This document shows, piece by piece, positions 4,627 to 30,164 of a stretch of DNA of 64,000 bases. Every line of letters starts with the position of its first letter. Position 1 is the first letter of the stretch. The notes under the pieces were generated by a model. The model saw only the letters and a program-made list of their open reading frames with translations, did no database searches and was not told where the DNA came from. The DNA comes from Escherichia coli (GTDB lineage: Bacteria; Pseudomonadota; Gammaproteobacteria; Enterobacterales; Enterobacteriaceae), in NCBI RefSeq assembly GCF_016026235.1, contig NZ_CP065613.1, one strand, 5' to 3'. A program made the position numbers and the translations under genes.

Positions 4627-5481
4627 TTACGCTTCTATAGCAGCACGCAATTTTTTCATCGCGTTCTTTTCCAGCTGGCGCACACGCTCAGCGGAAACGC
4701 CGTAACGGTCAGCCAGTTCCTGCAACGTGGACTTGTTGTCTTCGTCCAGCCAGCGCGCGCGGATGATGTCCTGGCTACGCTCGTCCAGACCTTGCATCGC
4801 GTCGGTCAGACGGTTTGCCGCCTGCTCTTCCCAGTTATCATCTTCGATGCCGTCGGCAAAGTTAGATGATTTATCCTGCAGATAGAGCACCGGTGCCATC
4901 GGCTGGCTGTCGGAATCGTCGTCGGAAGACAGGTCAAAGGTCATGTCCTGTGCCGCCATACGTGATTCCATCTCACGAACGTCTTTGCTGGTTACGCCCA
5001 GTTCACGGGCCACCATTTCGACTTCATCCTGGTTAAACCAGCCCAGACGCTGCTTGGTTTTACGCAGGTTGAAGAACAGTTTGCGCTGCGCTTTGGTGGT
5101 CGCAACTTTGACGATACGCCAGTTACGCAGAACGTATTCGTGGATCTCTGCTTTGATCCAGTGAACGGCGAAGGAGACCAGGCGCACACCCACTTCCGGG
5201 TTGAAACGGCGCACTGCTTTCATCAGGCCGATGTTACCTTCCTGAATCAAATCCGCCTGTGGCAGGCCATAGCCCGCATAATTACGAGCAATATGAACAA
5301 CAAACCGCAGGTGAGACAGGATCAGCGTTTTAGCTGCTTCCAGATCGCCATGGTAATGCAGCTTTTCAGCCAGCGCCCGCTCCTCGTCAGCCGACAACAT
5401 CGGCCACGCGTTAGCTGCCCGGATGTAGGAATCCAGGTTGCCAACTGGGGCTAAAGCTAAACTTTGCATTTTGTCAGTCAT
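4627..5481 (-). CDS. rpoH: RNA polymerase sigma-32 (heat-shock sigma factor)
   Basis: 284-aa [71 protein letters not shown]..., sigma-70 family regions 2 and 4. Confidence 0.97.
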
Positions 5482-5725
5482 TCAAATCCTCTCAATCGAT
5501 ATCTTCTGGCGCTTCAGTGGTAGCAACAACTGTGCCAGAGCTTAAGAGCAACGAGGTTATCATTCACTGTTTTATCAGACCGTGATTTTATCCACAAGTT
5601 CAATGCAAGCTTGTGAATAAATTACGCACAAAATGTGACATAGAGATGAAATACCGGGAAGAGACAACGGGATCTCTTTCCCTGCTACGGAACCCATTGC
5701 AGGGAAAGAGTATAACACGCTTTTA

Positions 5726-6784
5726 TTATTCAGGCGTAAAGTGGCGTAAATGTTGTACCGTGGCAAGCCACGCTGCCACCCAGCCAATCATCGAGCATAC
5801 CAGCAGCAATAGCAGGCATTCATCGAACGATAAACCATTGATATCAAACTTCGTTCCGAAAACCTGTGCCACTTCCGCAACCGCCGATGACAATCGCAGC
5901 ACCAGAATTTCTGACAAAATTAATGACAACAATGCGCCAGAAAATCCCAGCAGTGCGCCACCGTACAGGAACGGACGCAGGATGAAACCATCCGTCGCAC
6001 CAATCAGTTTCTGCACGTTAATGGAGTCACGGCGAGCAAAGATACTCAGGCGCACACTGTTACCGATGACGAGGAACACTGCCGCCACCATCAACACGCC
6101 GATCATCGCCGAAACGCGCCCGACCAGCCCGGTCAACGCCGCCAGACGGGCAAACCAGCTGTCATCCATCCGCACTTCGTCAATGCCGTTAATCTGCGTG
6201 ATACGATCACGCAGCGTATTGAGTGATTCCGTCCCCTGAAAATCGAGTTTCGGGATCACCACCGCCACTGCCGGAAGCGGGTTTTCTTCCAGCATATCCA
6301 GCGCACCACCAAAACCAGACCAGTTACGGAACTCGCCCAGTGCGTCTTCACGAGAAAGATAGTTCACTTTCTCCACGCCTTGCTCGGCCTGCAACTGTGC
6401 CACCACGCCCGCAGCAGCGTCATCGTCCAGCGTTTTTTGCAAGTAAACAGTGATTTGCGGTGACGGATAATACTGCGTCGCCGCCTGGTTAACGTTTTTG
6501 TACACCATATAACAGACGCTGGGCAGCGTCAGGGAGATGGCGATAACCATCACCGTTAAAAACGTGGCGAACGGTTTGCTTTTCAGATCTTGCAATGCGC
6601 CGTGGAAGGCATAGCGCACCTGTTCGTTGAAAACGTTGGTTTTGCGATTTATCGGTTTTGGCGAGGATTTCGCACGTTTCGGCGCGTTACGACCGCCGTC
6701 GCCAGAGCCGCCGACCGATTTACGGAAGCGATCAAGACGCCCGCCAAACTGCCGAATATGATTGATTGCATCGCGCTTATTCAT
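5726..6784 (-). CDS. ftsX: Cell division ABC transporter permease-like protein FtsX
   Basis: ORF 5726..6811; start placed at ATG 6784 ([20 protein letters not shown]...), 352 aa; 8-nt overlap with ftsE end. Confidence 0.92.
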
Positions 6785-20871: not shown

Positions 20872-23675
<2,804 letters not shown>

Positions 23676-23824
23676 CACCTACCAACGCGCCGTTATTTCC
23701 TTACGGCGCAGTAAACTTCTGACACATATCGACTCACGTCACATTTTTTTGATCACGATTTGGTCCCTCAAAATGTGAGACGCTTCGATCCTCTTTTTCT
23801 CCCGTTCACCTACTATACGCTTGA

Positions 23825-23852
23825 AGTTGTCCATGATTGTCCATAGACAACT
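23825..23852 (+). promoter_or_regulatory. Candidate operator: 7-bp inverted repeat plus tandem TTGTCCAT half-sites immediately upstream of the GntR-family regulator
   Basis: AGTTGTCcatgaTTGTCCATaGACAACT located 13 bp upstream of the regulator ATG; function inferred only. Confidence 0.3.
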
Positions 23853-23864
23853 GTAAATGTTCAG

Positions 23865-24620
23865 GTGCGCGCCATGAAATCATTAAGTAAGTCGTCACAA
23901 ATACCGCTCTATCAACAAGTGGTGGAGTGGATAAGAGAAAGTATTTATACCGGAGATCTGGTGGAAGACGATCGCATTCCTTCGGAATACCAGATTATGG
24001 ATATGCTGGAAGTGAGTCGGGGAACCGTTAAAAAAGCGGTCGCCCAACTGGTAAAAGAAGGCGTGTTAATACAGGTCCAGGGTAAGGGAACATTTGTCAA
24101 AAAAGAGAACGTGGCATATCCGTTAGGTGAAGGATTATTGTCATTCGCGGAATCGCTGGAAAGCCAGAAAATACATTTTACCACTGAAGTTATTACGTCA
24201 CGGATTGAACCAGCTAATCGTTATGTGGCAGAGAAATTAAGAATAACTCCCGGTCAGGATATTCTTTACCTTGAACGCTTACGCTCAATTGGTGATGAAA
24301 AAGCGATGCTGATAGAGAACCGTATCAATATTGAGCTATGCCCCGGTATTGCGGAAATCGATTTTAATCAACACAATTTATTTCCAACAATAGAAAGTTT
24401 GTCGCAAAGAAAAATTCGTTACTCGGAAAGTCGCTATGCCGCGCGATTAATTGGTAATGAACGTGGTCATTTTTTAGATATCAGTGAAGACGCACCCGTT
24501 TTGCATCTGGAGCAGTTAGTCTTTTTCTCCCGAGGATTACCCATTGAGTTTGGCAACGTCTGGTTAAAAGGAAATAAATATTATCTTGGCACCGTACTGC
24601 AACGGCGGGAAGTGAGTTAA
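23865..24620 (+). CDS. GntR/HutC-family transcriptional regulator (wHTH + UTRA effector domain)
   Basis: 251 aa; N-terminal IPSEYQIMDMLEVSRGTVKKAVAQLVKEGVLIQVQGKGTFV is a typical GntR HTH; alternative ATG at 23874. Confidence 0.8.
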   Translation: MRAMKSLSKSSQIPLYQQVVEWIRESIYTGDLVEDDRIPSEYQIMDMLEVSRGTVKKAVAQLVKEGVLIQVQGKGTFVKKENVAYPLGEGLLSFAESLESQKIHFTTEVITSRIEPANRYVAEKLRITPGQDILYLERLRSIGDEKAMLIENRINIELCPGIAEIDFNQHNLFPTIESLSQRKIRYSESRYAARLIGNERGHFLDISEDAPVLHLEQLVFFSRGLPIEFGNVWLKGNKYYLGTVLQRREVS

Positions 24621-24644: not shown

Positions 24645-25118
24645 ATGCAAGGCATACATTTTCAGGAAAATTATATTCAACGACTTCCGGCAGGGTTAAG
24701 CGTTGAACAGATCATCCGTCAGTTAGCGCAACCGTTGGTTGCCGCCGAGCTGGTCGTCCCTGATTTTGCCGATCACGTACTGAAACGTGAGGAGACGTAC
24801 CCAACGGGGCTGCCTACCGAACCACCGTGCGTCGCTATTCCGCACACGGACCATAAACATGTCAGGCACAATGCAATTGCCGTCGGCATCCTGCCGGAAC
24901 CGGTAGAGTTTGCCGATATGGGCGGCGATCCTGACCCCGTACCTGTCAGGGTGATTTTTTTGCTCGCCTTAAGCGAAAGTAATAAACAATTAAATGCCCT
25001 GGGCTGGATTATGGAAATGATTCAGGATACGCCCTTTATGCAAGCCCTGCTTGCGATGGAAACAACAGAAATACACACAGTAATCTTAAACAAAATGAAA
25101 GAACGAGGTGAAATATGA
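24645..25118 (+). CDS. PTS EIIA component (EIIA-2, mannitol/fructose/Ntr-type fold)
   Basis: 157 aa; active-site motif VAIPHTD (phosphorylatable His). Confidence 0.8.
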   Translation: MQGIHFQENYIQRLPAGLSVEQIIRQLAQPLVAAELVVPDFADHVLKREETYPTGLPTEPPCVAIPHTDHKHVRHNAIAVGILPEPVEFADMGGDPDPVPVRVIFLLALSESNKQLNALGWIMEMIQDTPFMQALLAMETTEIHTVILNKMKERGEI

Positions 25119-25396
25119 GTCAAACCATTTTATTTGTCTGCGCCACGGGTATTGCCACATCCACGGCGGTAACAGAAAAAGTCATGGAATATTGTAAAGA
25201 GCACGGTCTTAACGTCAATTATTCCCAAACCAACGTTGCCTCTTTACCTGGAAATACTGATGGCGTAGCACTGGTAGTCTCAACGACTAAAGTGCCTTAT
25301 GAACTCGACGTCCCGGTAGTTAACGGCTTGCCGATTATTACCGGTATTGGCGAAGAGAAAGTACTGGCGCAAATTGTTTCGATCCTTAAAAATTAA
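25115..25396 (+). CDS. PTS EIIB component, galactitol (GatB)-type
   Basis: 93 aa MSQTILFVCATGIATSTAVTEK...; N-terminal Cys-containing phosphotransfer motif as in GatB/SgcB. Confidence 0.8.
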   Translation: MSQTILFVCATGIATSTAVTEKVMEYCKEHGLNVNYSQTNVASLPGNTDGVALVVSTTKVPYELDVPVVNGLPIITGIGEEKVLAQIVSILKN

Positions 25397-25472
25397 TTAA
25401 TAATAATTAATTTCAACCCACTCCATCAGGCGCTAACGCGAGGTGCGCTCTCGCCTGAAAAAGAGGTTTATT

Positions 25473-26831
25473 ATGAACGATATCGCGCATACCCTCTATA
25501 ATATTGTGCAATATATATTGGGATTTGGCCCGACGGTAATGTTGCCGTTGGTGTTATTTATTCTTGCTCTCTGTTTTAAAGTAAAACCCGCTAAAGCCTT
25601 ACGTTCGTCATTAACAGTCGGCATTGGTTTTGTCGGTATTTATGCCATTTTCGATATTCTGACCAGCAATGTCGGGCCAGCGGCCCAGGCGATGGTTGAA
25701 CGCACCGGAATTAATTTACCGGTGGTAGATTTAGGCTGGCCGCCGCTTTCCGCTATTACATGGGGTTCGCCAATTGCCCCGTTTGTTATTCCCCTGACCA
25801 TTCTGATTAACGTGGCGATGCTGGCGTTAAATAAAACCCGTACCGTTGACGTAGATATGTGGAACTACTGGCATTTTGCCCTTGCTGGTACGTTGGTTTA
25901 TTACAGCACCGGCAGCCTGTTCTTTGGTTTGCTGGCGGCGGCGATTGCTGCGGTGGTAGTACTTAAACTCGCCGACTGGTCTGCGCCACTGGTACAAAAA
26001 TACTTTGGACTGGAAGGGATCTCATTGCCGACGCTCTCTTCGGTGGTGTTCTTCCCGGTCGGTCTGCTGGTCGACAAAATCATCGACCATATCCCCGGCC
26101 TCAATCGTATTCATATCGACCCGGAAACCGTACAGAAAAAGTTTGGCATCTTCGGCGAACCGATGATGGTTGGCACTATTCTGGGCATACTGCTCGGCGT
26201 GATTGCAGGATACGATTTCAAAAAAGTGTTGCTGCTTGGCATCAGCATTGGCGGTGTGATGTTCATCCTGCCACGCATGGTTCGCATCCTGATGGAAGGT
26301 TTATTACCGCTGTCTGAAGCCATTAAAAAGTATCTCAATGCCAAATACCCTGACCGTGACGATCTCTATATCGGACTGGATATCGCCGTTGCCGTAGGTA
26401 ATCCGGCGATTATCTCCACCGCCCTGCTGCTAACGCCAATCTCGGTCTTTATCGCGTTTGTCCTCCCAGGTAATGAAGTCCTGCCGCTTGGCGACCTTGC
26501 CAACCTGGCGGTAATGGCGTCGATGATTGCTTTAGCCAGCCGTGGCAATATTTTCCGCACCGTTCTGGCGGCGATCCCGGTGATTATTGCCGACCTGTGG
26601 ATTGCGACTAAAATCGCACCGTTTATTACCGGCATGGCGAAAGACGTTAACTTCAAATTTGCCGAAGGCTCCAGCGGCCAGGTTTCCAGTTTCCTTGATG
26701 GCGGTAACCCGTTCCGCTTCTGGCTGCTGGAAATCTTCAACGGCAATATCATCGCCATTGGTCTGGTGCCGGTTATCGCCCTGGTACTGTATGGCATTTT
26801 CCGAATGACGCGGAGCACGGTTTATGCCTGA
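25473..26831 (+). CDS. PTS EIIC permease, galactitol (GatC) family
   Basis: ORF 25443..26831; start placed at ATG 25473 after AAAGAGG RBS; motifs LGFGPTVMLP, GIGFVGI, GPAAQAM, DLGWP, IPGLNRI, KFGIFGEP, LPLGDLA, GNIFRT align to GatC as I recall it. Confidence 0.85.
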   Translation: MNDIAHTLYNIVQYILGFGPTVMLPLVLFILALCFKVKPAKALRSSLTVGIGFVGIYAIFDILTSNVGPAAQAMVERTGINLPVVDLGWPPLSAITWGSPIAPFVIPLTILINVAMLALNKTRTVDVDMWNYWHFALAGTLVYYSTGSLFFGLLAAAIAAVVVLKLADWSAPLVQKYFGLEGISLPTLSSVVFFPVGLLVDKIIDHIPGLNRIHIDPETVQKKFGIFGEPMMVGTILGILLGVIAGYDFKKVLLLGISIGGVMFILPRMVRILMEGLLPLSEAIKKYLNAKYPDRDDLYIGLDIAVAVGNPAIISTALLLTPISVFIAFVLPGNEVLPLGDLANLAVMASMIALASRGNIFRTVLAAIPVIIADLWIATKIAPFITGMAKDVNFKFAEGSSGQVSSFLDGGNPFRFWLLEIFNGNIIAIGLVPVIALVLYGIFRMTRSTVYA

Positions 26832-28332
26832 TAACAGCGCAGCTATCGTTATCGATATTGGCACCACCAATTGCAAAGTCACCTGCTTTTCCTGCCTGGA
26901 CGCAACGACGTTGGGCGCGCATAAATTCGTGACGGCAAAGCAGATCTCCCCACAGGGCGATGTCGATTTCGATATCGACGCCCTCTGGCAGGAGGTCCGC
27001 CAGGCGATAGCGCAACTGAACGCCGCTTCGCCGCTGCCAGTCAGACGGATCAGCATTGCCAGTTTTGGCGAATCAGGCGTGTTCCTTGACGAGCATGGCG
27101 AGATCCTGACGCCAATGCTGGCATGGTATGACCGTCGCGGTGAAGAGTATCTGGCAACGCTTAGCGAGGCAGACAGTGCGGCACTTTATGACATCTGCGG
27201 TCTACCACTACACAGCAATTACTCTGCCTTCAAAATGCGCTGGTTGCTGGAACATTACCCGCTGCGTAATCGCCGCGGCCTGCGCTGGCTACATGCGCCG
27301 GAAGTGCTGCTCTGGCGGCTGACTGGCGAACAGCGCACGGATATCACCTTAGCCAGCCGCACGCTGTGTCTGGACGTGCGCAAAGGCGAATGGTCAGCGA
27401 AAGCGGCGGCGTTGTTACACGTTCCCTGTACGGCATTTGCGCCATTGGTGCAGCCAGGCGAGCACGCCGGATGGGTCAGCGAGTCACTTTGCAAGACGCT
27501 TGGGTTCTCGCAACCGGTCAGCGTGACGCTGGCCGGACATGACCATATGGTGGGTGCGCGAGCGTTGCAGATGATGCCAGGCGATATCCTTAACTCGACG
27601 GGGACCACGGAAGGCATTCTGCAACTGGATACACAACCGACGCTGGATGAACAGGCCAAACGTGACAAGCTGGCAAACGGCTGTTACTCACTTGCCAACC
27701 AGTTCACCCTGTTTGCGTCGCTGCCCGTGGGCGGTTTCGCGCTGGAGTGGCTGCGCAACACGTTCCGGCTAACCGATGAGGAGATCGCCGCATCACTTAC
27801 TCGCGGACATGCTGATTATCTGGCGGGGAATTGGTTGCTCGATGACATTCCCGTCTTTATTCCACATCTTCGCGGTTCGGGTTCGCCCTATAAAAATCGC
27901 CATACCCGTGGATTATTTTATGGGCTTGGCGATACGTTAAGTATCGACATGTTAATTGCCAGCGTATCACTGGGATTAACCATGGAATTTGCCAACTGCT
28001 TCGCCTGTTTTAACGTGCCTGGCACCAGCGCGTTAAAAGTGATCGGTCCGGCAACCCATAATCCTCTTTGGCTGCAATTAAAGGCGGATATTTTACAGCG
28101 TCCGGTTGAAGCAATTGCATTTAACGAGGCGGTTTCTGTCGGAGCATTATTAACCGCCGCACCGGATATTCCACCGCCGCCAGTCGCTATAGCCCAACGT
28201 TTGTTACCGAATCGGGCGAGATACCATCAATTACAGCGTTATCAGCACAAATGGAAAAGCTGGTATCAGTTGAAATTACAACAAGAAGGCGTGATGCCAT
28301 TACATCATCGGGAGGAACACTATGTTGAATAA
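26824..28332 (+). CDS. FGGY-family carbohydrate kinase (substrate unknown)
   Basis: 502 aa; N-terminal AIVIDIGTTNCK, FGGY signature-1-like YSAFKMRWLLEH, C-terminal GTSALKVIGP; 8-nt overlap with EIIC gene. Confidence 0.75.
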   Translation: MPDNSAAIVIDIGTTNCKVTCFSCLDATTLGAHKFVTAKQISPQGDVDFDIDALWQEVRQAIAQLNAASPLPVRRISIASFGESGVFLDEHGEILTPMLAWYDRRGEEYLATLSEADSAALYDICGLPLHSNYSAFKMRWLLEHYPLRNRRGLRWLHAPEVLLWRLTGEQRTDITLASRTLCLDVRKGEWSAKAAALLHVPCTAFAPLVQPGEHAGWVSESLCKTLGFSQPVSVTLAGHDHMVGARALQMMPGDILNSTGTTEGILQLDTQPTLDEQAKRDKLANGCYSLANQFTLFASLPVGGFALEWLRNTFRLTDEEIAASLTRGHADYLAGNWLLDDIPVFIPHLRGSGSPYKNRHTRGLFYGLGDTLSIDMLIASVSLGLTMEFANCFACFNVPGTSALKVIGPATHNPLWLQLKADILQRPVEAIAFNEAVSVGALLTAAPDIPPPPVAIAQRLLPNRARYHQLQRYQHKWKSWYQLKLQQEGVMPLHHREEHYVE

Positions 28333-28591
28333 AACCGTGGAGGTCAGAAACAGTACTGGCCTGCATGCACGTCCGGCGGCCTGTCTGGCGAAAGCCGCCA
28401 AAAAATATAGCTGTAAAGTGACGCTGCACTATGAGGGTAATGATATTAATGCCACCAGCATGATGAATATTATGCGCGCCGGAATAAAAGGCGGAAAAAC
28501 GGTGGAAATACGCTGCGACGGTGATGATGAAAACGAGGCCATACAGACTCTCACCGACTTATTTCGCGACCGCTTCGGTGAAGCTGAATAA
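28322..28591 (+). CDS. HPr-family phosphocarrier protein (operon-specific paralog)
   Basis: 89 aa MLNKTVEVRNSTGLHARPAACLAKAAKKY...; His-15 motif GLHARPA. Confidence 0.8.
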   Translation: MLNKTVEVRNSTGLHARPAACLAKAAKKYSCKVTLHYEGNDINATSMMNIMRAGIKGGKTVEIRCDGDDENEAIQTLTDLFRDRFGEAE

Positions 28592-28622: not shown

Positions 28623-29483
28623 ATGCCATTAGTTAATGGACGGATACTGCTCGACCGCATTCAGGAAAAACGGGTATTAGCGGGCGCATTTAATACCACC
28701 AATCTGGAGACGACAATTTCAATTTTAAACGCTATTGAGCGTTCGGGATTACCCAACTTCATTCAGATTGCGCCAACCAATGCACAACTCTCGGGATACG
28801 ATTACATTTATGAAATCGTGAAACGTCACGCCGATAAAATGGATGTTCCGGTCAGTCTTCATCTGGATCACGGGAAAACTCAGGAGGATGTGAAACAGGC
28901 GGTGCGCGCGGGCTTTACCTCGGTCATGATTGACGGTGCCGCATTCTCTTTTGAAGAGAATATCGCTTTCACCCAGGAAGCTGTCGATTTCTGTAAATCC
29001 TATGGTGTACCGGTTGAAGCGGAGCTGGGGGCGATTCTCGGCAAAGAAGATGATCACGTCAGCGAAGCCGATTGCAAAACGGAACCGGAAAAGGTGAAGA
29101 CCTTTGTCGAGCGTACCGGTTGCGACATGCTGGCAGTTTCTATTGGCAACGTTCATGGCCTGGACGATATACCGCGTATCGATATCCCCCTGCTGAAGCG
29201 CATTGCCGAAGTCTGTCCGGTGCCGTTGGTTATTCACGGCGGCTCCGGTATCGCCCCGGAGATATTACGCAGCTTTGTTAATTATCGCGTCGCTAAAGTA
29301 AATATCGCCAGCGATCTGCGCAAAGCGTTTATCACCGCCGTCGGCAAAGCGTATGTGAATAATCACAACGAGGCGAATCTGGCACGAGTCATGGCATCAG
29401 CAAAAAACGCCGTCGAGGAAGATGTGTATAGCAAAATCCTGATGATGAATGAGGGGCATCGGTTGGTTAGAAAGGCATCTTAA
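28623..29483 (+). CDS. Class II ketose-bisphosphate aldolase (GatY/KbaY/FbaA family)
   Basis: 286 aa; metal-binding motifs LHLDHG and IHGGSG. Confidence 0.85.
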   Translation: MPLVNGRILLDRIQEKRVLAGAFNTTNLETTISILNAIERSGLPNFIQIAPTNAQLSGYDYIYEIVKRHADKMDVPVSLHLDHGKTQEDVKQAVRAGFTSVMIDGAAFSFEENIAFTQEAVDFCKSYGVPVEAELGAILGKEDDHVSEADCKTEPEKVKTFVERTGCDMLAVSIGNVHGLDDIPRIDIPLLKRIAEVCPVPLVIHGGSGIAPEILRSFVNYRVAKVNIASDLRKAFITAVGKAYVNNHNEANLARVMASAKNAVEEDVYSKILMMNEGHRLVRKAS

Positions 29484-29532: not shown

Positions 29533-29892
29533 TTATAAATGATTCAAACGCTCATTCAGTGTTTCAATAATATAGGTATTAACAGAGACTTGTTGCTGCG
29601 CAGCCGCATTATTAAGGCGTTCACTCAGCGATTCTGGATAGCGTAACGTAAAGGTCTTAATCTTTTCTGTACGCGCATACGGCTCAATACCCGCAGCTTT
29701 ACAATCCTCAAGATACTCTAGCAGGGAAAGTTCCCCTTCTTTTTGCAGCCCCTGAATGCTGTCAGAGACAAAATCACAATAACCTGACAAGCCCAGGAAT
29801 TTGCCACGAAATGCATTCAGTTCTGGCACGTAAGTGATAACAGCAGGTTGCCCGGCAATCTCCATTGAGTTTGGCGTCTTCAGTTTGATCAT
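29533..29892 (-). CDS. HicB-like antitoxin (C-terminal ribbon-helix-helix-like DNA-binding tail)
   Basis: 119 aa MIKLKTPNSMEIAGQPAVITYVPELNAFRGKFLGLSGYCDF...RYPESLSERLNNAAAQQQVSVNTYIIETLNERL; 4-bp overlap with upstream small ORF. Confidence 0.6.
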   Translation of the reverse strand: MIKLKTPNSMEIAGQPAVITYVPELNAFRGKFLGLSGYCDFVSDSIQGLQKEGELSLLEYLEDCKAAGIEPYARTEKIKTFTLRYPESLSERLNNAAAQQQVSVNTYIIETLNERLNHL

Positions 29893-30164
29893 GGTTTTAC
29901 CCCTATACTTAGTAACCAGTCACGCACGCTTTCTACAGCGCCTTTATCGGTATCTGGCGACGGATGAGGCCGATGGAAACACGCAACGCTCATATTTAGT
30001 ATGAACTTACAACGCGAACCTCTTCCTTCCTTAATTTCTCCGCCTAATGCTTTAACCTGTGACTCTATATCAGACCACTTGATCCCTTGAGGAACAGGAG
30101 TTTTAAATATTTGATCCAATGTATTTTTTTGTTTCTTCCGTAAAGCCTGTACCTTGGTTCTCAT
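29889..30164 (-). CDS. HicA-like mRNA-interferase toxin
   Basis: 91 aa; ...WSDIESQVKALGGE...GSRCKF...HRPHP...AVESVRDWLLSIGV resembles HicA (W-x-ES...GS...PRHP...) pattern; upstream of and overlapping the HicB-like gene. Confidence 0.55.
   Translation of the reverse strand: MRTKVQALRKKQKNTLDQIFKTPVPQGIKWSDIESQVKALGGEIKEGRGSRCKFILNMSVACFHRPHPSPDTDKGAVESVRDWLLSIGVKP

Follow-up and report, generated by a model that had tools for sequence, protein, structure and literature searches.

A predicted 28-bp operator for the GntR/HutC-family regulator of an accessory phosphotransferase island in Escherichia coli

The Accessory Island and Its Genomic Setting

The window analyzed here, i.e., the whole stretch of 64,000 nucleotides (64 kb) of E. 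coli DNA, carries an accessory island of seven genes within the gene order nikABCDE–nikR, island, hicBA, and yhhJ. The island codes for a transcriptional regulator followed by a complete pathway, with three components of a phosphotransferase system (PTS), a sugar kinase, a phosphocarrier, and an aldolase (Table 1), and the gaps between consecutive genes are short or overlapping (24, −4, 76, −8, −11, and 31 nt). Of 5426 complete E. coli genomes, 1637 (approximately 30%) carry the island, including O157:H7 and ST131. Promoter-like and terminator-like sites inside the island are no more frequent than in shuffled sequences. At the right edge of the island, the toxin–antitoxin pair hicB/hicA is located on the minus strand at 29533–30164 directly after the aldolase gene; neither the HicB nor the HicA protein had a match in NCBIfam. 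At the nikR side, a hairpin (GCGCCGT/ACGGCGC, 23687–23709) with a 9-nt loop and no T-run lies 12 nt past the nikR stop codon. It was not called by the terminator scan; it may terminate nikR transcription and so insulate the promoter of the island. Moreover, the 76-nt gap between the EIIB and EIIC genes contains an AT-only run (25390–25413) followed by a GC-rich dyad, CAGGCG...CGCCTG, at 25429–25459, which may be an intercistronic RNA structure. The compound repeat at 25390–25413 was also considered as an operator and was rejected as merely an AT-rich run.

An orthologous island in Salmonella enterica (locus L082, 7001–12632) adjoins uhpABCT and corresponds to STM3779-85. According to published work, STM3779-85 was acquired in the ancestor of subspecies I and is silenced by H-NS; it has been described as an island for the utilization of an 'unknown carbohydrate', and it still stood under 'unknown sugars' in 2024. 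In the literature searched, no paper was found that gives the sequence of the operator site or the substrate of the island, nor was any record of binding, footprinting, or transcription start found for it. The frz operon of ExPEC contains an MgA-type activator and a ROK kinase, and the tag genes of Klebsiella are fru-like genes; judging from this gene content, the island is probably distinct from both systems.

Table 1. Coordinates of the island genes and of the features predicted at the island promoter (positions in the window; a dot marks features without strand).
Feature	Position	Strand	Remarks
Distal degenerate CRP-like box ATCGA-CTCACG-TCACA	23728..23743	.	46 bp upstream of proximal box
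Proximal CRP-like box AAATGTGA-GACGCT-TCGATCCT	23771..23792	.	putative; perfect left half, weak right half
−10-like hexamer TACTAT	23811..23816	+	putative, from conservation
Whole predicted operator AGTTGTCCATGATTGTCCATAGACAACT	23825..23852	+	three 10-bp half-sites; cross-genus matrix match
Half-site 1 AGTTGTCCAT, direct	23825..23834	+	unit matrix 15.4 bits
Half-site 2 GATTGTCCAT, left arm of core palindrome	23835..23844	+	unit matrix 13.2 bits
Core near-palindrome TTGTCCATAGACAA	23837..23850	.	12/14 symmetric; GT and AC cores 6 nt apart
Half-site 3 AGTTGTCTAT, right arm of core palindrome	23843..23852	-	unit matrix 15.5 bits
Shine–Dalgarno-like AGGTG	23863..23867	+	6 nt 5' of ATG; conserved in 17-genus alignment
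GntR/HutC-family regulator, 248 aa	23874..24620	+	PF00392, PF07702; PGAP: GntR family transcriptional regulator
PTS EIIA, fructose/galactitol type	24645..25118	+	begins 24 nt past regulator stop codon
PTS EIIB, galactitol type	25115..25396	+	
PTS EIIC, galactitol family	25473..26831	+	TIGR00827, E = 8.5e-143; PGAP start
FGGY-family sugar kinase	26824..28332	+	
HPr-family phosphocarrier	28322..28591	+	
Class II ketose-bisphosphate aldolase, final gene of predicted unit	28623..29483	+	NF005943 557 bits; PF01116

The Regulator and Its Likely Inducer

The regulator combines a GntR winged helix–turn–helix domain (PF00392, residues 12–75, 58.8 bits, cut-off 27) with a UTRA effector domain of the chorismate-lyase fold (PF07702, residues 98–236, 97.5 bits, cut-off 23.8). 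Its scores against the NCBIfam equivalogs (HutC, PhnF, TreR, LSA1692, and others) are all below the curated cut-offs, the best being that of LSA1692 with 123.6 versus 275 bits, and the protein is, therefore, an unnamed member of the HutC subfamily. The UTRA domain of this regulator is represented by a structural-genomics crystal structure annotated as 'Putative regulator' (PDB 3hfi, 170 residues), which differs from residues 79–248 by 5 substitutions in 170 (E = 3e-107). A ligand in this structure, if any, could point to the effector.

The closest characterized relative by sequence is NagR (E = 1e-22). In the alignment of both proteins, the guanine-reading Arg48 and the wing residue Gly69 of NagR are kept as R49 and G70, and Arg38 is replaced by Tyr in the regulator and by Asn in most homologues. 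Arg38 of NagR reads the first G of the GG pair in TGGT and, thus, the presence of Tyr or Asn fits a half-site with TTGT instead of TGGT. Regarding the effector domain, the phosphate-binding residues Arg133 and Arg135 of NagR correspond to R135 and R137, and the helix-cap positions Ser-Phe-Thr and Ile-Tyr correspond to S90–F91–A92 and L169–F170, all of these positions being invariant in 24 homologues. The retention of both the phosphate-ligand and the helix-cap residues makes a phosphorylated sugar the likely inducer of the regulator.

Anatomy of the Predicted Operator

The first-pass annotation of this DNA had described a dyad upstream of the regulator gene together with two direct repeats, and direct reading bears out both elements. 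The dyad is formed by AGTTGTC (23825–23831) and its exact reverse complement GACAACT (23846–23852), separated by a spacer of 14 nt, and the two copies of TTGTCCAT (23827–23834 and 23837–23844) are offset by 10 nt. The whole 28-nt element can be described as three half-sites with the consensus nnTTGTnnAT, two of them direct and one inverted. Half-site 1, in direct orientation, precedes half-site 2 by one helical turn, and half-sites 2 and 3 stand face to face, giving the near-palindrome listed in Table 1. The unit matrix reaches at least 13 bits at just 0.003% of the positions of the window. Two candidates for a fourth E. coli half-site, one direct (AAATGTTCAG, 23855–64, −3.7 bits) and one inverted (23853–62, −7.6 bits), were rejected.

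In every aligned site, half-site 1 has the form nnTTG(T/A)nCAT. Among 30 sites, G15 and T16 are invariant in half-site 2, as are A19, G22, and A23 in half-site 3, so that the GT and AC cores of the inverted repeat TTGTC...GACAA (G15, T16, G22, and A23) are kept without exception over four orders. The gap between GT and AC is 6 nt (GT-CCATAG-AC) in all orthologous sites, and the core palindrome becomes perfect, TTGTCTATAGACAA, in Salmonella, Winslowiella, Trabulsiella, Rahnella sp. AA, and others. On the other hand, the outer 7+7 dyad pairs unit 1 with unit 3 and is perfect in Escherichia and Citrobacter only. This outer dyad is a by-product of the three half-sites; the symmetry that is conserved is that of the inner TTGTC-N4-GACAA.

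Frequency of the Element within the Window

An inverted repeat of 7 nt is by itself common, since it appears in 13.7% of the shuffles of the 198-nt intergenic region and 211 times in the window, and a direct repeat of 8 nt at an offset of 5–20 nt is found in 4.7% of the intergenic shuffles. Together, an inverted repeat with a nested direct repeat occurs in 0.06% of 5000 intergenic shuffles. This type of compound repeat was seen at just two further places in the window, one of which is an AT-only run. The sole other non-trivial case in the window, at 36375–36404, is AACATTAATG...CATTAATGTT, an inverted repeat of 10 nt within which direct repeats are nested. The exact dyad pattern occurs once in the window when up to two mismatches are allowed, and TTGTCCAT alone shows no enrichment in the window (4 observed versus 2.2 expected).

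It is the comparative evidence, over these repeat statistics, that is decisive for the predicted function of the element. A 28-nt matrix was built from 28 distinct sites of non-Escherichia genera only, the sites having been collected with a degenerate pattern that was taken by eye from a first alignment, a procedure that carries some circularity into the matrix. This cross-genus matrix finds a single match in the 64-kb window, at 23825–52, with 37.7 bits, against 3.7 bits for the next, unrelated position and 13.9 bits for the best of 50 shuffles.

Conservation across Orthologous Islands

A scan of a genome collection with alignment of the regulator homologues provided 80 loci. The gene set accompanies the regulator in approximately 35 genera of Enterobacterales, as well as in Gilliamella, Enterococcus, Selenomonas/Centipeda, lactobacilli, and Atopobiaceae. 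The proposal of an operator had been made dependent on the recurrence of the motif in orthologous islands, and the motif is, indeed, present approximately 22 nt 5' of the regulator start in 34 of the 35 Enterobacterales loci, and also in Salmonella. Recognizable versions are found in Gilliamella, Selenomonas/Centipeda, Enterococcus, and lactobacilli. Furthermore, matrix matches of at least 14 bits in approximately 1 Mb from 83 related loci are all located at promoters of this gene set, and the motif is absent from the Collinsella paralogues (42% identity), which have no PTS genes.

The mean pairwise identity among 17 genera is 0.93 in the operator versus 0.47 in the promoter spacer. The same pattern is observed at short distance, where the 28 nt remain unchanged between variable flanks in the divergent alleles of E. 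coli that were sampled (O157-like, ST131, and a river isolate), as well as in E. whittamii and C. amalonaticus.

In a subgroup of 16 loci that is decisive for the argument, with a regulator identity of approximately 70%, EIIA, EIIB, EIIC, and the kinase form a separate operon located upstream. A search for additional copies of the motif before the EIIA gene had also been suggested; such a copy exists in 16 of 16 loci with the separate operon and is missing from E. coli, where the matrix scan found no second operator in the island, either before EIIA or in the 76-nt EIIB–EIIC gap. The lack of a second copy before EIIA in E. coli is explained by the position of this gene, which begins 24 nt past the regulator gene and probably shares its transcript. 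An exception is found in Pantoea sp. (L021), where the site is present at the EIIA promoter only and not before the regulator. The split-operon islands (L021–L035 and L053; e.g., L023 at 4777–5811) also carry an additional Zn-dependent dehydrogenase gene between the kinase and regulator genes. This enzyme suggests a polyol substrate in these islands and a ketose for the E. coli version, which has no dehydrogenase.

Beyond the Enterobacterales loci, the number of half-sites varies. Selenomonas shows two direct units and one inverted unit, as in E. coli (38 bits), plus a fourth symmetric unit. In Gilliamella, three or four direct units are combined with an overlapping inverted one, and in Enterococcus as many as five direct units extend over approximately 80 bp at multiples of 10 bp, right after the −10 element. 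The arrays of Gilliamella and Enterococcus comprise 3–5 units phased by multiples of 10 bp and placed directly after −10. The promoters of Sporolactobacillus, Pediococcus, and Lacticaseibacillus (L052, L055, and L056) share a different palindrome, TTCACAGAGGTACCCTGTG, approximately 40–60 nt upstream of degenerate operator units, which may be the site for another regulator.

Predicted Promoter, Regulator Start, and Leader

The distance of 13 bp between the dyad and the regulator ATG proposed in the first-pass annotation is incorrect. The ATG codon (23874), which RefSeq/PGAP gives as the start in the identical O157:H7 sequence, is located 21 nt past the dyad, and a distance of 13 bp leads to an in-frame GTG codon at 23865, taken from a mechanical listing of open reading frames. 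This GTG was rejected as a start, as it is GCG in Salmonella and missing from the islands with approximately 70% identity; since it is not conserved, ATG 23874 is the conserved start.

In 16 of 17 genera, a hexamer of the form TAnnAT is conserved at a constant spacing to the operator, and the operator begins 8 nt after the hexamer. The TACTAT sequence of E. coli would place the transcription start near 23823–23825. A scan of 23600–24000 with a simple sigma-70 consensus detected no promoter, and TACTAT was missed because no −35 element is present. Therefore, the assignments of the −10 element and the CRP boxes draw on conservation alone. Upstream of the hexamer, AAAnTGTGA (23771–78) hardly varies (majority fraction 0.93) and lies 37 nt before the conserved TAnnAT. 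The center of this proximal CRP-like half-box would fall at approximately −41.5 from a start at about 23823, where a CRP box would replace the −35 element of a putative class II CRP-dependent promoter. The islands with approximately 70% identity show TGTGA-N6-TCATA at the same 50–51 nt from the operator. The distal box is a canonical TGTGA-N6-TCACA in most other genera and is degenerate in Escherichia and Citrobacter, and its distance of 46 bp to the proximal box is a spacing not obviously in phase. A further conserved block, AAAATGATCC...TTTGAAC, is located between the two CRP-like boxes (TGATC at 23750–54).

The operator directly follows the −10 element in three promoter classes, namely, those of the regulator gene in either island group and those of EIIA. 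Therefore, repression by occlusion is indicated.

The leader that separates the operator from the ATG, ATGTTCAGGTGCGCGCCATGAA (23853–23879), is conserved like the operator, with majority fractions of 0.90–0.96 in 17 genera. A small hairpin, UUCAGG/CCAUGAA, is possible in this leader and would pair the start codon with the ribosome-binding site. This conservation may reflect translational control or extended contacts of the operator.

Alternative Explanations

The comparative evidence supports the initial reading of the element as an autoregulatory operator of the HutC type, and the domain composition of the regulator (GntR plus UTRA) is in line with it. On this basis, the 28-bp element very probably serves as operator for the GntR/HutC-family regulator that the island itself encodes. 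Several other explanations for the repeats have to be weighed against this assignment.

It is improbable that the regulator binds to the site and functions as an activator or dual regulator instead of as a simple repressor. The island promoter has no −35 element and, thus, needs some activator, but this need is already met by the conserved CRP boxes. Moreover, in each of the three promoter classes the site comes right after the conserved −10, a position for occlusion rather than for recruitment, and characterized relatives from the HutC family, such as NagR, are repressors released by their effectors.

Binding by another chromosomal regulator, e.g., a global sugar regulator, instead of by the adjacent GntR protein is a still less probable explanation. 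In its favor, the nearby CRP-like boxes point to global regulators acting at the island promoter. Nevertheless, the motif follows the regulator gene through Proteobacteria, Negativicutes, and Bacilli, which have no global sugar regulators in common, and does so in variable genomic settings, the island adjoining, for example, nikR in E. coli and uhp in Salmonella. In addition, the motif is confined to the promoters of this gene set in the approximately 1 Mb of related loci, without any other match in the 64-kb window, and the GT...AC cores of the operator are of the GntR-family type.

The dyad might also act in RNA, as a hairpin AGUUGUC...GACAACU in the 5' leader that controls the stability, attenuation, or translation of the regulator mRNA, an explanation to which we give very little credit. 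The dyad would be transcribed from a start near 23823, and the E. coli leader does fold with this hairpin (−15.1 kcal/mol, z = −2.35 versus shuffles). However, in the 30 orthologous sites, 67.6% of the cells pair in the outer stem, a value reached by 465 of 500 column shuffles, and the inner stem pairs in 75.2%, which 428 of 500 column shuffles reach. Compensatory changes show no excess over shuffles in either the outer or the inner stem, and the closing pair 7–22 is formed in just 6 of the 30 sites. Since neither stem covaries, the element is better explained as a DNA site than as an RNA structure. Furthermore, what is conserved is the sequence of the half-sites, direct as well as inverted, and the arrays of Gilliamella and Enterococcus are mostly direct repeats, which cannot pair. 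No Rfam family matches.

Finally, despite the commonness of a lone 7-nt inverted repeat and the accessory nature of the island, it is scarcely credible that the repeats arose by chance or are a scar of island insertion without regulatory role (an integration site or the terminal repeat of a mobile element), given the rarity of the compound feature in shuffles, the recurrence of the same site, equally far from the regulator start, in islands of different phyla and of unrelated chromosomal location, the far higher conservation of the operator than of its flanks, and a spacer identity of 47%, which argues against the loci being recent horizontal copies of one element including its flanks.

Proposed Mechanism and Its Significance

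From the arrangement of the genes and sites, we infer the following mechanism for the operator of the island's own regulator, in which the binding, the repressing rather than activating sign, the structure as a single operon, the nature of the effector, and the transcription start are all putative. The near-palindrome of units 2 and 3 is the kind of site that a two-fold symmetric HutC dimer would recognize. The predicted operator would span roughly +1 to +29 of a promoter devoid of a −35 element, whose activity would depend on CRP through the half-box near −41.5. In the absence of the sugar, the regulator would sit on the start site and block RNA polymerase, so that repression would affect its own gene and, via the same transcript, EIIA, EIIB, EIIC, the kinase, HPr, and the aldolase. 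Upon sugar uptake, a phosphorylated intermediate would bind to the UTRA domain and cause the release of the DNA-binding domains, as in NagR, after which CRP-cAMP would drive expression.

Since GT and AC are 6 nt apart in this site versus 4 nt in most HutC sites, the register of the palindrome could be wrong. An unlikely variant is a cooperative assembly of two or more regulator dimers, instead of a single dimer, on TTGTnnAT half-sites phased by 10 bp along one face of the DNA. If this were true, the phased assembly and the palindrome spacing enlarged by 2 bp would constitute a distinct mode of DNA binding in the HutC subfamily, extending from Bacilli to Enterobacterales. Moreover, the number of units would then set the tightness of repression, with three in E. 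coli, four symmetric ones in Selenomonas, and up to five in Enterococcus.

As a kind of control element, the predicted operator is ordinary; it is newly pinned down for this island. Together with a repressor that would respond to a sugar phosphate, it offers a practical route to the substrate of the island. Mutation of the operator or loss of the regulator should make the operon constitutive, and either a fusion of the operator to a reporter or a thermal-shift screen on the crystallized effector domain (PDB 3hfi) could identify the inducer.

Comparison with Known Systems

NagR (YvoA) and DasR, which belong to the GntR/HutC family and bind dre operators (the structure of the B. subtilis NagR–DNA complex is described in PMC4333415), resemble the regulator discussed here in that it, too, would be a HutC-family repressor of a PTS sugar operon that includes its own gene. 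The site shares with dre (GTGGTCTAGACCAC) an inverted repeat with a GT...AC core. Unlike in NagR, the half-site has TTGT instead of TGGT, the half-sites are located 1 bp further from the center (GTCTATAGAC versus GTCTAGAC), and a third, direct half-site is conserved. A similar picture arises from the canonical HutC-subfamily consensus NyGTMTAKACNy (Rigali 2002, as given in PMC4494728), with which the site has in common the GT/AC cores, the A/T-rich center, and the position at the regulator's own promoter, whereas the GT–AC distance of 6 nt contrasts with the 4 nt of this consensus.

A palindrome accompanied by a weaker additional box at 7–12 nt from the center of the site has been reported for four HutC orthologous groups (Suvorova, Korostelev and Gelfand 2015, PMC4494728), and the sites of the present regulator are absent from the supplementary tables of that work. 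The E. coli element follows this pattern of a palindrome with an adjacent extra half-site. Nevertheless, its extra box matches the arms of the palindrome in strength (15.4 versus 13.2 and 15.5 bits), is strictly conserved, and is multiplied to 3–5 phased units in other phyla. The element is a further well-supported case of the 'palindrome plus extra half-site' architecture in GntR-family regulators.

Direct repeats are also bound by other HutC members, namely, FarR/MngR and NagQ, the unit of FarR being TGTATTAWTT, with 10 bp. In E. coli, MngR is likewise the regulator of a PTS operon. The tandem direct repeats are shared with FarR and NagQ, and the unit has the same 10 bp as that of FarR, a likeness at the level of the family. 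In contrast to FarR/MngR and NagQ, the unit sequence is different here, and direct and inverted units are combined. Lastly, AraR, which has a GntR DNA-binding domain, shows half-site spacings of six or eight nucleotides in two DNA complexes and is a precedent for a 2-bp change of half-site spacing being tolerated by GntR-type domains, although its effector domain is of the LacI type, unlike the UTRA domain of the regulator considered here. Both the GT–AC spacing and the extra half-site of the predicted operator are mildly unusual features with precedents among known systems.
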